From NCBI RefSeq assembly GCF_055900595.2, contig NZ_CM148325.1: a stretch of DNA of 64,000 nucleotides. One strand, given 5' to 3'. Shown one piece after another: positions 382 to 6,795 of the stretch. The translations under genes and the position numbers were made by a program. The notes under the pieces were generated by a model. It saw nothing but the letters and a program-made list of their open reading frames with translations, made no database searches and had not been told where the DNA came from. Numbering within the stretch: the stretch's first letter is position 1; each line of letters opens with the position of its first letter.

Positions 382-2262
382 TTAATACTCCGTCACGTTT
401 TCCTGTCGCCACGCCTCGTCATATTCCGATTTCGGCATATTGGCGATGTAGCTATATGGCGATCCTGATTCAAGTTGCAGGAACTGGTGCGATTGCTCGT
501 CAAGGAACAACGGGACACCACCTTCCCAACCTTCGCCGTTACGTTGTTTTTCAAGCATCAAAACAGATGCCGGAGATGCCAGTAGCTGTTCGTCCTTCTC
601 TGACATCTTTTCACCACTCTGAACTCTCTGTAACGCTCTCTCGCGAGCCTTGTTACGCCAGATGATGAAAAGGTTGTCTGTCAGGTCTGTTATCGCTCCA
701 GAGCCTTTTACGTCCATTTTCCCGGTTGGTTTTTCTTCGCTGTCTCCTTTTCGCGAGTGAGTAACGAGAATGACGTGGGAGTTTGTTTTGTTTTTGAAGT
801 CGCAAATCGAGTCAACAAACGCCTTCTGCCCGTTATAGTCATCGTCGCCTATGCCACATTTCATCAGGCTGTCGATGATGAATAACTGGATCCCGTATCG
901 GCGGCGAGCGTAGTCGAATATTTCGATCAGCCTGTCGGCTTTCGCCGTTCCGGTCAGGCCAAACACCCAGAGTCTTTCGTCATAAAATTTAAATGCAGAG
1001 TCAATTTCCAGCACTGGCGGCATCTTGCAGCACGTTGCCTGACGGGTAAGGCGCTTAAGGAGAATACCAGGCTTCAGCTCAAGTGACGCGATGCACGTCT
1101 TCACACCCTGACGCATTGCCTCAAGTGCCATATGCCCGACAACCTCCGTTTTTCCGTGACCGTTCACACCATTGACCAGCGTCAACTCGGCCTCACGGAA
1201 CTGGAATTTATCTGCCAGAGATTCCCACGGTGGATTAAACAGATACTGCTGCTTGCCGTAGAAAGCGTTGATAGTGTCCTGGTAAAACTCTCGCGCGCTG
1301 TAGAGTTCTTCAGGATCGAAGTAGGATGCCGTGCCAATGTACTGCCAGATTTCATCCTCGGTAACACCGTTCATCAGGCATTCGTTGATGTCTTTGTACG
1401 GCAGAGTAACAAGACGGCAACGATGTTCACCGAGTCGGCTTGCGATTTCCCTTGCGGCTTCACGACCAACATCATCAACGTCCATCGAGATGAATATTTC
1501 CTCAAACCTGTCGAGGTTGTGATACTCAAACTCAATCCACTGCTGCTTAGCGCCTTTCCCGCCACCAAACGGCACGGATAACGCCGAGATGCCGTATTGC
1601 GCATAGCTCATACAGTCAATTTCGCCTTCGCAAAGTACAACAGCCCTCACGCCAGCGTCCAGAGCCTGCCATCCGAACAGACAAGGTTCGCAATCACCTT
1701 CTGCCATAATGACTTTCTTCCCGTCCGGGCGCTCAGTGCTGATTCGCTTGACCTGCAACAACTCACCATCGCGTTTGTACGGAATCACCAGAGCATCCAG
1801 TTCCCGCTCTCCATTCCACACCTTGCCGCTGACAACCTCGTATCGCTTTACGATTTCTGGCGATATGCCACGCGATTGCAGGTACTCAAGATGGGATTCT
1901 GTTCTGGTAACGTAGCGGGCTATTTTCTTGCGATCAGGTCTGGAGAATTTCTTCTCACGTTTGGCATCGAAATGGTGATCGTCATCCTTGATACCGAGAA
2001 ATGCTTTCGCTTCCTGCATAGCCTGATGCAGGTTAATTCCACGACATGCCATCCACAAATCAAGCATGTCACCGCCGTCTCCCTCAGCGAAATCAGCCCA
2101 TTTTTTCTTGCCGCTAAGATTGACCTTAAGGCTGTTTCCCTTGTCACCGTTGACGTTACCGGCAACCCACTCATGCCCCTCTTTCTTGCCGTTTGGCAAC
2201 AGGTGCGGAGCCACCCTGTCAACCTGCGCCCAAAGCAGGTCGCTAAGTTCACTTGGCGTCAT
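382..2262 (-). CDS. Bifunctional DNA primase / replicative helicase (TOPRIM + DnaB-like ATPase)
   Basis: 626 aa; TOPRIM-like LCEGEIDCMS, Walker A GVNGHGKT, Walker B-like FIIDSL; sits where lambda P would be. Confidence 0.85.
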   Translation of the reverse strand: MTPSELSDLLWAQVDRVAPHLLPNGKKEGHEWVAGNVNGDKGNSLKVNLSGKKKWADFAEGDGGDMLDLWMACRGINLHQAMQEAKAFLGIKDDDHHFDAKREKKFSRPDRKKIARYVTRTESHLEYLQSRGISPEIVKRYEVVSGKVWNGERELDALVIPYKRDGELLQVKRISTERPDGKKVIMAEGDCEPCLFGWQALDAGVRAVVLCEGEIDCMSYAQYGISALSVPFGGGKGAKQQWIEFEYHNLDRFEEIFISMDVDDVGREAAREIASRLGEHRCRLVTLPYKDINECLMNGVTEDEIWQYIGTASYFDPEELYSAREFYQDTINAFYGKQQYLFNPPWESLADKFQFREAELTLVNGVNGHGKTEVVGHMALEAMRQGVKTCIASLELKPGILLKRLTRQATCCKMPPVLEIDSAFKFYDERLWVFGLTGTAKADRLIEIFDYARRRYGIQLFIIDSLMKCGIGDDDYNGQKAFVDSICDFKNKTNSHVILVTHSRKGDSEEKPTGKMDVKGSGAITDLTDNLFIIWRNKARERALQRVQSGEKMSEKDEQLLASPASVLMLEKQRNGEGWEGGVPLFLDEQSHQFLQLESGSPYSYIANMPKSEYDEAWRQENVTEY

Positions 2263-2366
2263 GATTCCCTCAGATTGAGATTTTTAAACCAGAAATCGAC
2301 AAATGAAATACTTAACCAGCCGTGGTTATAACCAGCGACCAGTAGCGATTTGATTTTTGATTTCAT
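2259..2366 (-). CDS. Possible 35-aa ORF coupled between initiator and primase-helicase
   Basis: ATG with AGGTGA SD; stop overlaps primase start (ATGA); below ORF-track cutoff. Confidence 0.25.
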   Translation of the reverse strand: MKSKIKSLLVAGYNHGWLSISFVDFWFKNLNLRES

Positions 2367-2369
2367 GGT

Positions 2370-3230
2370 TCACCTGTCGAAAAACACGTAGCCAGTTTTC
2401 GATACGGTGATTGCGGATGATGGTTTGGATTGTGGTTGAATGGTTTCTGGCTTTTCGTCGTTCCAGCGTTGACCGTTCAGGTAGCTCGATGGTAACAACC
2501 TGTCGAATCCGAACTGCTTACCATTCCTGCATGCGATGTCTTCTGCCAACATCGTGGCAAACTCGCTTGCCGTACCCCTGGTAGTTTTACGCCATTCCCT
2601 GAACTGTGTTCTGAATGCCGAAGCTGCGTTTTTCTTCCCGGCTTTCCGCATGCCTGCACACCAGAATATTTCCTCGAATGCCTTGTCGGTTTCTTCGTGA
2701 CGGTCAGGTGATTTTTCACACTCCGTCCGAACACTTTCGGACATAGTGTTTTTATTATTTCTTTTTTCTTTTGTAATAGTTTCTTTTGTGTGTCCCTGTT
2801 TTGGTGACAGCGCTGTCACCATTTTGGTGACACTTTTTGTCACCAATGCAGTGACATTATCACCAGAGTAGTGACACCCTTCGATTTGCCATTCCTCGAT
2901 GTTCTTGTTAGGCCCGATTTGCTGGCCTTCGCGAAGGATAACCTTCATCGCGATAAGCTCATTCTTGGCCTTGTTTACCTTCTGTCTTGGCAGCCTGGTA
3001 ATTTGAGCTAACTGACTATCAGAGATGCGATCCATCTTTTTACCGTAGCCGTATGTTTTACGGCATATGGCGTGGGCAACCTTGCTCTGATTTTTCGTTA
3101 AATCTGCGCCGATAAGCTCTTCATACAGGGCATTTGCAAGACGGGTATAACCATCTTCAACTTCTGCCACACGACGCTCCACAGGCCGTTGTGAAGGCCT
3201 TAAATGTGTTACGGTTGCAAGATTACTCAT
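2370..3230 (-). CDS. Replication initiator, lambda O-family N-terminal domain
   Basis: N-terminal region resembles lambda O (DGYxRL...ADLTK...KTYG...MDRIxDSQL...GPNKNI.EW); iterons lie inside the gene. Confidence 0.75.
2801..2880. repeat. Origin iterons (GGTGACA/TGTCACC repeats) with adjacent AT-rich tract
   Basis: At least 6 direct/inverted GTGACA motifs within 80 bp, flanked by AT-rich 2745..2790, in the initiator linker as in lambda ori. Confidence 0.55.
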
Positions 3231-3369
3231 GACCTTTCTCCTTCTGCATCAGCTTCACTTTTTCCAACTCAGCCCGGAATCGACCAGGCTGCTTGAAGCT
3301 GGACAGGAAGCGATCACGTAGTATGTGTTTGTGAATTTTGTCCTGGTAAGGACTGAGTTGTTTTGTCAT
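3223..3369 (-). CDS. Hypothetical basic 48-aa protein between cII and the initiator
   Basis: [18 protein letters not shown]... with AGGAG SD 6 nt upstream; 3-prime end overlaps initiator start. Confidence 0.4.
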
Positions 3370-3403
3370 AATTACTCCTGTGGATTGATCCAGTCTTTCT
3401 ACA

Positions 3404-3682
3404 TCAGGCCTCGAAGAATTCGCCGTTCTTCGGGGCTTTTTCTTTTGTCAGCATTCTGGCTACTTTCTTAGCCAGTTCCGCCAACTCCTCGTCTTCAACA
3501 CCCCATTCAAGAACAGCCAGAAGCATTCCCATTTTTGGGATGAAGCTGTCTTTCCATCGTGAAATTTGCGATTCATTAATCCCTAACGCGTCGGCCACCT
3601 TTCGCTGACCACGTACAGCAATTCGATTTAGGATGTTGCTTGTAATTGCATTCGCTTTCTTGCGAGTACTTGTAAGTTGCAT
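3404..3682 (-). CDS. cII: CII-like transcriptional activator
   Basis: Matches lambda CII core (SQISRWK...[10 protein letters not shown]). Confidence 0.8.
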
Positions 3683-3761
3683 ATGTAAGTATTTCCTTAG
3701 ATAACAATTGATTGAATGTATGCAAATAAATGCATACACCATAGGTGTGGTTTAATTTGAT

Positions 3762-3793
3762 GCCCTTTTTCAGGGCTGGGATGTGTAAGAGCG
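3762..3793 (-). promoter_or_regulatory. nutR (boxA + boxB)
   Basis: Minus strand reads boxA CGCTCTTACA then boxB GCCCTGAAAAAGGGC, between cro and cII. Confidence 0.65.
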
Positions 3794-3801
3794 GGAATGT
3801 C

Positions 3802-5154
<1,353 letters not shown>

Positions 5155-5544: not shown

Positions 5545-5877
5545 ATGGATGCACAAACACGCCGCCGCGAACGTCGCGCAGAGAAACAGGCTCAATGGAA
5601 AGCAGCAAATCCCCTGTTGGTTGGGGTAAGCGCAAAACCAGTTAACCGCCCTATTCTCTCGCTGAATCGCAAACCGAAATCACGAGTAGAAAGCGCACTG
5701 AATCCGATAGACCTTACGGTGCTGGCTGAATACTACGAACAGATTGAAAGCAACCTGCAACGTATTGAGCGCAAGAATCAGCGCACATGGTACAGCAAGC
5801 CACGGAGTGAAATGGGTGTGACATGCTCAGGCCGCCAGAAGCAACGCGGAAAATCAATTCCGGCTTATTACGATTGA
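5545..5877 (+). CDS. N: Antiterminator N
   Basis: MDAQTRRRERRAEKQAQWKAANPLL..., Arg-rich motif, near-identical to lambda N over most of its length. Confidence 0.92.
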   Translation: MDAQTRRRERRAEKQAQWKAANPLLVGVSAKPVNRPILSLNRKPKSRVESALNPIDLTVLAEYYEQIESNLQRIERKNQRTWYSKPRSEMGVTCSGRQKQRGKSIPAYYD

Positions 5878-6416: not shown

Positions 6417-6624
6417 GCATAAACAACAGAATAAACACAGCACTGTGTATTCATTCCAACGAGTGAATACACGGAGCAATGTCGCTCGTAACTAAACAGG
6501 AGCCGACTTGTTCTGATTATTGGAAATCTTCTTTGCCCTCCGATGTGAGGGCTTTTTTATATGCATACCAATAACGCTTCACTCGAGGCGTTTTCGTTAT
6601 GCAATCAAACAGAAGGAGCATCCT

Positions 6625-6795
6625 ATGCAACAGTTCGCTATTGCAGGGGCGGCATCGGTTCGCCCTTTCAACCCGATTTTATCGGTACAGCATTCACGAA
6701 AAAATATTTTAACCGGAGCAGACTTTAAACAACCAAGAATGAAAAGTTTGCTCGAAAAGCTTTGGGATATTTTGAAACAACAAGGCCGTCCATGA
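6625..6795 (+). CDS. cIII: CIII-like protein (FtsH inhibitor family)
   Basis: MQQFAIAGA... and SLLEKLWDILKQ resemble lambda CIII; AAGGAG SD. Confidence 0.6.
   Translation: MQQFAIAGAASVRPFNPILSVQHSRKNILTGADFKQPRMKSLLEKLWDILKQQGRP

Follow-up and report, generated by a model that had tools for sequence, protein, structure and literature searches.

The cII-initiator region and its small gene

The locus described here lies in a 64,000-nt stretch of contig NZ_CM148325.1 (RefSeq assembly GCF_055900595.2; 'the window' denotes this whole stretch), in which a cII gene, a 48-aa ORF and a replication initiator with a lambda-O-like N-terminal domain follow one another (Table 1). Downstream of the initiator lies the gene for a 626-aa primase-helicase (Toprim plus DnaB-like), and the iterons within the initiator gene are laid out like the annotated origins in lambda O, P22 gene 18 and HK620 O. 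The preliminary description of this DNA had reported a basic 48-aa ORF with a well-spaced AGGAG, situated between cII and the initiator and overlapping the start of the latter. The sequence bears out these particulars: 5 nt separate the AGGAG from the ATG, the computed pI is 10.09 (about +5.8 at pH 7, for a product of 5.8 kDa), the flanking genes match Phage_CII (upstream) and Phage_rep_O (downstream), and the two reading frames have 8 nt in common.

Table 1. Features of the cII-initiator region, with coordinates counted from the first nucleotide of the window.
Feature	Coordinates	Strand	Basis and remarks
cII gene, upstream neighbour	3404..3682	minus	Pfam Phage_CII, E 1.8e-42, full-length match
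Oop-like antisense RNA (predicted)	about 3380..3447	plus	Terminator scan; 5' part homologous to lambda oop
Shine-Dalgarno AGGAG of the small ORF	3375..3379	minus	Followed by 5 nt (TAATT) and the ATG; inside the lambdoid block ATCnACAGGAGTnATTATGAC
oop promoter pO (putative)	3344..3372	plus	Homology with the P22-annotated pO and lambda alignment; -35 TGGTAA 3344-3349, 17-nt spacer, -10 CATAAT 3367-3372
48-aa ORF (DUF2740/orf48-type CDS)	3223..3369	minus	ORF list and Pfam PF10872; ATG 3369-3367, TAA 3225-3223, 48 aa plus stop
5' arm CGUGAUC of the proposed long-range mRNA helix	3312..3318	minus	R18, D19 and first base of R20; MFE and ensemble folds, RNAalifold
Shine-Dalgarno AAGGAG of the initiator	3238..3243	minus	7 nt before the ATG; corresponds to small-ORF codons K43-E44
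3' arm GGUCAUG of the proposed helix	3228..3234	minus	Pairing with the 5' arm; contains the initiator start codon
Stop/start overlap ATGAGTAA, 8 nt	3223..3230	minus	Initiator ATG 3230-3228, ORF stop TAA 3225-3223
Replication initiator, lambda-O-like N-terminal domain, 286 aa	2370..3230	minus	Phage_rep_O, E 1.2e-37; PHROG 'replication initiation O-like'
Four iterons of about 19-20 nt (TGTCACC-N6-GGTGACA type), probable origin	2791..2876		Repeat finder; inside the initiator gene, adjoining an AT-rich stretch

With 103 ORFs of at least 30 aa in the first 8 kb of the window, an ORF of such size is not significant on its own. What takes it beyond chance is a match to Pfam DUF2740 (PF10872) that spans positions 1-43 of the 43-position profile and scores 99.4 bits where the cut-off is 27 (E 8.9e-29), together with its recovery from 127 phage records (tblastn) and an excess of synonymous changes among its relatives. 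All 54 database relatives carry PF10872, and the sequence is present in 399 of 5,426 complete E. coli genomes, in which its PGAP name is 'DUF2740 family protein'. The family is narrow (18 matches at E <=0.001 when 1.84 billion representative proteins were searched in full with the HMM), and its named sources belong to the Enterobacterales (E. coli, Salmonella, Citrobacter, Klebsiella, Pluralibacter and an Erwinia phage). Judging from these comparisons, the small ORF is a genuine protein-coding gene.

Its protein is 100% identical to the products of HK620 hkaW, HK022 orf48 and VT2-Sakai H0097 and to those of many Stx2 phages, 85.4% identical to that of P22 orf48 and 58% identical to that of an Erwinia phage gene. 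Orthologues are annotated at the equivalent slot in P22, HK620, VT2-Sakai, CP-1639, HK630 and an Erwinia phage, and the annotated gene orders (c1-orf48-18 in P22, cII-hkaW-O in HK620, cII-H0097-O in VT2-Sakai) correspond to the one in the window. As P22 orf48, HK022 orf48 (gp53), HK620 hkaW and VT2-Sakai H0097 share family, length, slot and the 8-nt overlap with the initiator, and nothing substantive sets the orthologue group apart from the window ORF, the latter is, by homology, this lambdoid-phage gene, already catalogued and not new. Its downstream surroundings differ: the ORF of the window precedes a PF04492-type initiator and the 626-aa primase-helicase, whereas those of HK620 and VT2-Sakai precede an HK022-type O and a DnaB-like P. 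The existing names (P22 orf48, HK620 hkaW, DUF2740) had escaped the preliminary description.

The layout cII-oop-'orf'-O-P has been described, with the remark that lambda 'is naturally missing' orf48 (Hayes et al. 2012, PMC3349717). A literature search for 'DUF2740' returned no paper and one for 'hkaW' unrelated text matches only; in the orf48/P22 papers searched, the gene figures solely as a map feature in cloning descriptions, with no function assigned, and the searched literature contained no experiment on an orf48/DUF2740 gene. NCBIfam and PADLOC contained no model matching the protein. An equation of orf48 with gnarl1 (Silas et al.) was considered and discarded: gnarl1 is an unrelated gene of Klebsiella phage KpV79, and the motifs of the window protein are absent from the supplements.

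An initiation site shared with lambda O

The initiation region of the window was aligned with those of lambda, P22, VT2-Sakai and an Erwinia phage, and the block ACTGGATCnATCnACAGGAGTnATTATGAC is present in lambda, P22 and VT2-Sakai as well as in the window. The Shine-Dalgarno sequence, the ATG and the 5' region of oop thus belong to the same block in lambda and in the window, and in this alignment the initiation site of the small ORF is the very site that lambda uses for O. In lambda it starts O directly; in the window it starts the 48-aa ORF, and the initiator begins about 139 nt later with a second Shine-Dalgarno sequence. The strong ribosome-binding site had been noticed before, though not that it is the shared lambdoid initiation site. 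The earlier statement that the ORF occupies a position that is intergenic in lambda is imprecise: there is no long gap there in lambda, from which the ~139 bp are absent altogether.

The same nucleotides appear to serve the opposite strand as well, as the complement of ATTATG at the ORF start is CATAAT, the -10 element of the oop promoter pO, which has been described for lambda and P22 (PMC3349717). In the window pO was placed by homology only, and a generic sigma-70 consensus scan did not call it. The oop-like RNA predicted from this promoter region would be complementary to the 3' end of cII and would end in a strong terminator, a hairpin at 3406-3438 followed by a U run, whose fold has an energy of -27.9 kcal/mol (z -4.95); an Rfam scan of positions 2000-5000 for oop or other RNAs gave a sub-threshold chance match only. 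As the predicted 5' end of this RNA adjoins the Shine-Dalgarno sequence of the small ORF, the oop-complementary region would end one base upstream of it.

In HK97 the slot is filled by a different ORF, gp53 (53 aa), which has the same initiation block, is likewise basic and overlaps the start of O by 14 nt. Its first 11 residues are similar to those of the window protein; the remainder is unrelated to DUF2740 (hhalign probability 1.7%). We therefore rejected gp53 as a member of the family, as the only residues that align are encoded by the part overlapping the conserved pO DNA. Since both lambda and HK97 do without DUF2740, O-type initiators as a class do not need the protein.

Linkage to the initiator and constraint on the protein

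In order to describe the genomic context of the family we gathered 173 loci from phage records, IMG/VR contigs and metagenome or genome contigs. A first IMG/VR scan yielded 100%-identical copies only, which are informative on flank diversity and not on divergence, and a second scan, for which distant members served as seeds, supplied the diversity that was analysed afterwards. Across the 173 loci the small ORF always abuts the initiator, and wherever the downstream gene is present (169 loci) the stop of the former overlaps the start of the latter, by 8 nt in 166 cases, as ATGA in two and with an extra upstream ATG in one (an Erwinia phage). The initiator ATG is embedded in the last codons of the small ORF (GGT CAT GAG TAA), and the resulting junction, cATGAGTAA, persists where protein identity has fallen to about 45% and is the same before initiators of two unrelated families. 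One of these matches PF04492 (window, P22, the Erwinia phage and PhiR12), the other is of the HK022/HK620 type and has no Pfam match; all initiators nevertheless start with MSN, because the codons concerned form part of the conserved junction. The genes that come after the initiator vary, and encode a DnaB-like helicase, a protein of lambda P size (233 aa) or a primase-helicase.

The upstream side of the small ORF is less constant. In about 30 loci a ParB-HTH-like, a 178-aa or a 249-aa gene is inserted between it and cII, and in these loci the small ORF overlaps the stop of the inserted gene and stays joined to the initiator. That it can be separated from cII, and never from the initiator, argues against a cII-linked role. 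A cIII-like inhibitor of FtsH, which we had considered on account of the small size and the proximity to cII, was rejected, given that the gene travels with the initiator and not with cII; in addition, no BLASTP alignment at E <=100 was obtained against lambda cIII, and no Lambda_CIII match appeared in the Pfam scan at E <=1. As the identical protein accompanies two unrelated initiator families, its target is, in our inference, likelier to be a host factor or nucleic acid than the initiator itself. Taken at the level of sequence comparison, the gene is real, conserved and joined to the initiator throughout, and the overlap between the two is conserved with it.

The preliminary description had suggested looking for conservation of the ORF in related prophages; it is kept in related and in distant ones, where it is under purifying selection. 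Between divergent DUF2740 members the pairwise dN/dS (Nei-Gojobori) comes to 0.25-0.44, synonymous sites being saturated or close to it. The central codons (20-42), which are free of known overlapping nucleotide signals, show a pooled pN/pS of 0.33, and conserved residues in them are spelled in many ways (six codons for L22, five each for R30 and R32). The N-terminal codons 2-12, which lie opposite the oop promoter, have a pN/pS of 0.64 when pooled and above 1 in close pairs, and few synonymous changes, which points to a constraint on the DNA rather than on the protein in this part.

The protein itself is predicted to be a small basic helical hairpin. AlphaFold2, run on a 21-sequence alignment, gave two helices (residues 7-23 and 28-44) with a mean pLDDT of 79, and each helix carries a motif retained to about 45% identity (HK[NH]I[LI]RD in helix 1, R.R.E[LW][ED].VK in helix 2). 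Foldseek of the predicted hairpin against the PDB found no match, and a profile search of PDB sequences matched de novo designed helical proteins only. Rop-like hairpin dimers came to mind as a hairpin fold here adjoins an antisense RNA gene; a four-helix-bundle homodimer, modelled as a tandem fusion on a paired alignment, came out poorly (pLDDT 46.6, pTM 0.26) and lent this idea no support.

A predicted mRNA helix at the initiator start and the readings of the locus

We folded the mRNA from the start of the small ORF to position +60 or +90 of the initiator start. In the minimum free energy fold of the window, CGUGAUC pairs with GGUCAUG and the initiator start codon is thereby predicted to be enclosed in a long-range helix. 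In the folds of P22, HK620, PhiR12, the Erwinia phage and three further loci (L007, L009, L010) these codons likewise pair around the initiator start, the register differing slightly, and the helix, of six pairs, is kept in the RNAalifold consensus of 60 unique sequences. The predicted probability that the initiator AUG is unpaired is 0.013 in the window and 0.001-0.084 in ten representative mRNAs. For O the corresponding figure is 0.41 in lambda and 0.36 in HK97, so that no strong sequestration of the start is predicted for HK97, unlike for the window. When the interior of the ORF was dinucleotide-shuffled, the mean was 0.24-0.49 for nine of the ten mRNAs and 0.08 for that of L010, in which the Shine-Dalgarno sequence rather than the AUG is sequestered; the fraction of shuffles as low as the observed AUG value was 0-0.14, which is only moderately significant for any single sequence. 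Arg18 is encoded by CGT in all 60 unique sequences, whereas R20, R30, R32 and L22 make use of three to six codons, and the third base of the R18 codon would pair with the A of the initiator AUG.

The helix is almost without variation (98.3% of its cells are paired), and on that account covariation says nothing either way: one compensatory cell was counted in 420, and the shuffle control was not exceeded. Its arms encode conserved residues (R-D on one side, H-E/Met on the other), which alone would be able to explain the complementarity. The initiator moreover has an AAGGAG of its own, replaced by purine-rich equivalents in homologues (AAGAGG, AGAGGT) and predicted to be about 50% unpaired, with which it could start independently. 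We infer the translational coupling of the two genes and consider it, from these models, moderately likely; what limits this judgement is the lack of covariation in the helix and the Shine-Dalgarno sequence that the initiator has of its own. The 'translational-coupling leader' of the preliminary description is retained for its coupling part, in favour of which the overlap in 169 of 169 loci and the AUG predicted as paired in 10 of 10 mRNAs speak indirectly; a mere leader, on the other hand, it is unlikely to be, because its amino-acid sequence is selected (pN/pS 0.33 in the central codons).

The explanation that we favour overall, with a probability of roughly 0.6, is that of a genuine orf48 gene which forms the first cistron of the replication block, is coupled through the helix to the initiator and encodes a peptide maintained by selection. 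The small ORF would be an early gene transcribed from pR, and would be translated from the strong conserved site just downstream of cII and oop. Ribosomes terminating at its stop would be placed on the initiator start by the cAUGAGUAA overlap, while the initiator AUG is probably held by the long-range pairing of codons 18-19 (CGUGAU) with GUCAUG. Ribosomes translating the small ORF would open this helix, which would make the synthesis of the initiator dependent on that translation and subject it to the controls that act on the small-ORF site, possibly including the oop antisense RNA, whose 5' end adjoins the Shine-Dalgarno sequence. The peptide, being under purifying selection, presumably acts in trans in connection with the initiation of replication.

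Selection on the peptide would also be expected if the ORF encoded a small protein acting in trans on its own account, one that modulates replication, for example, or a host factor or the choice between lysis and lysogeny, with the overlap reflecting the compact packing of phage genes, the initiator using its own Shine-Dalgarno sequence and the RNA pairing arising as a by-product of conserved codons. We regard this as possible rather than probable. The AAGGAG 7 nt upstream of the initiator, predicted to be about half unpaired, and the lack of covariation in the helix agree with it, and overlaps of 4 or 8 nt are common between neighbouring phage genes, including O/P and ParB-like/DUF2740 in the same loci. 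Less easily accommodated are the junction cATGAGTAA, kept through the divergence of the family and before both initiator families, the invariant Arg18 codon amid other conserved Arg and Leu codons that vary freely, and the initiator AUG that is consistently predicted as paired, unlike those of lambda or HK97. At the opposite end, a purely cis-acting leader or spacer with a functionless peptide would owe its conservation to overlapping nucleotide signals (pO, the initiator Shine-Dalgarno sequence and AUG, mRNA structure), and much of the ORF does coincide with such signals: pO overlaps codons 1-9, the proposed helix is made up of codons 18-19 and 46-48, and the initiator Shine-Dalgarno sequence and start fall within codons 43-48. 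The near-neutral evolution of the protein at codons 2-12, the different ORF (HK97 gp53) that fills the same slot and the leader peptides of plasmid rep genes such as R1 tap, the sequence of which is unimportant, fit this reading too. We nevertheless deem it very improbable, in view of the low pN/pS and the abundant synonymous change in the signal-free codons 20-42, the motif retained to about 45% identity and the confidently predicted hairpin fold.

Two further readings can be given next to no credence. One follows from the label of PHROG 1913, according to which the product is a virion tail protein and which has been copied into the RefSeq records of P22, Sf101, mEp043 and others. The original depositors, however, wrote 'unknown' or 'hypothetical', Pfam and PGAP say DUF2740, and no tail-related similarity emerged from any search, solved tail proteins included; as the gene invariably lies in the early replication region (a 48-codon member of the early-right operon, placed in every locus between cII and the initiator), the label is almost certainly an annotation error. 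The other, a chance ORF behind a fortuitous Shine-Dalgarno sequence, might draw on the abundance of short ORFs in the window, and is refuted by family-level conservation, synteny and dN/dS.

The coupled arrangement that we favour has parallels among plasmid initiators, in which coupling to a leader ORF is controlled by antisense RNAs (tap-repA with CopA in R1, a leader peptide with RNAI in IncB/IncI). As in R1 tap/repA, a short ORF lies directly upstream of the initiator with stop and start overlapping (by 8 nt in the window), and the initiator start is placed in a predicted helix that translation of the leader would open; as with CopA of R1, the oop target in the window would end beside the leader Shine-Dalgarno sequence, a likeness of predicted geometry. 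Oop itself is known to regulate cII, and is not known to act on the initiator. The window differs from R1 in that its peptide, unlike that of tap, is under purifying selection (dN/dS and central codons as given above), in that its initiator, unlike repA, has an accessible Shine-Dalgarno sequence of its own, and in that its coupling is a prediction. A dual device, in which the helix would allow the initiator to be made only when the small ORF is translated and would bring it under oop control, while the basic hairpin would act in trans on a shared host or nucleic-acid target, is a tentative extension that we consider rather unlikely; if true, it would be the phage counterpart of the plasmid CopA/tap/repA circuit.

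As a finding the gene is ordinary, being annotated in P22, HK022, HK620 and Stx phages, included in a Pfam family and named routinely by the NCBI pipeline. What the present analysis may add is its strict linkage to two unrelated initiator families, the observation that its initiation site coincides with that of lambda O and with the -10 of pO, and a conserved complementarity that may hide the initiator AUG; it also flags a 'tail protein' mis-annotation that is propagating. Some value lies in a strictly conserved, uncharacterised small gene within the very well-studied cII-oop-O regulatory region, present also in medically relevant Stx2 prophages. If the helix is real, translation of the small ORF, and perhaps oop as well, would gate the synthesis of the initiator in many lambdoid phages (P22 and Stx2 phages among them), and models of the switch between lysogeny and replication would be refined accordingly.

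Gene neighbourhood in the window

The gene that follows the lambda-O-like replication initiator is here a primase-helicase, as opposed to a lambda-P-type loader or a plain DnaB-like helicase, and the 107-nt gap separating the two holds a short ORF. Within the initiator gene itself, four palindromic iterons and the AT-rich stretch that comes next on the mRNA strand make up a probable replication origin. Opposite the 3' end of cII we predict an oop-like antisense RNA that has a strong terminator hairpin (no Rfam family matched the region), and the -10 element of its promoter is the complement of the DUF2740 ORF start. The two left-operon ORFs of the table were judged by eye: one is a putative lambda-like N (MDAQTRRRERRAEKQAQWKAAN...), and the other, starting MQQFAIAG..., looks like cIII.

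Features of the window and of compared loci (positions with L-numbers are internal to loci of other phages or contigs)
Feature	Position	Strand	Remarks
Left-operon ORF	6623-6795	+	Judged by eye
Left-operon ORF	5545-5877	+	Judged by eye
Oop-like RNA	3380-3447	+	Predicted
Oop-like RNA promoter	3344-3372	+	-10 = CATAAT
Oop-like RNA terminator	3406-3438	+	-27.9 kcal/mol
Iterons	2791-2876		Four, ~19-20 nt; TGTCACC-N6-GGTGACA
AT-rich stretch	2765-2789		Two TTTCTTTTGT repeats
Short ORF	2259-2366		35 aa
Primase-helicase	382-2262	-	626 aa; Toprim + DnaB-like; PHROG 239
DUF2740-DUF4752 fusion	L006:1501-1908		135-aa product; Salmonella phage PSP2-22 (ON886116, UNVERIFIED_ORG)
HK97 gp53	L015:1221-1382		53 aa, basic
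Insert	L121:662-1483		273 aa; ParB-HTH-like
Insert	L118:934-1470		178 aa; weak DNA-polymerase-III-beta-like match (E 0.003, below threshold)
Insert	L009:3255-4004		249 aa; no Pfam match

Substitutions, insertions and aberrant forms

In HK97 the slot of the DUF2740 ORF is occupied by a different ORF, gp53, which is read from the same initiation block (the conserved SD/ATG site) and overlaps the O start by 14 nt. The likeness of the proteins is limited to residues 1-11; gp53 had no Pfam-independent family match in NCBIfam or PADLOC. An extra gene sits between cII and the DUF2740 ORF in ~30 related loci (the three kinds of insert are tabulated), a site that seems able to take up cargo genes.

Phage PSP2-22 carries DUF2740 codons 1-45 joined in frame to a DUF4752 protein, with the replication initiator absent downstream; it looks as though the replication genes had been deleted or the sequence misassembled. 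Among the database variants of the family (P0058, 152 aa; P0001, 58 aa; P0012, 59 aa) are a fusion by read-through from cII into DUF2740, a duplication of 10 residues inside the protein, and calls extended at the N-terminus; frameshifts, faulty assembly or artefacts of gene calling probably account for them.

Naming of the DUF2740/orf48 family

PHROG 1913 names the family 'tail protein', a label that has passed into the annotation of many phage genomes, both in RefSeq and from Pharokka (RefSeq records NC_002371 of P22, NC_027398 of Sf101, NC_019706 of mEp043 and others). For an ORF of 48 aa that lies in the early operon, flanked by cII on one side and the replication initiator on the other, this naming looks like a propagating mis-annotation.
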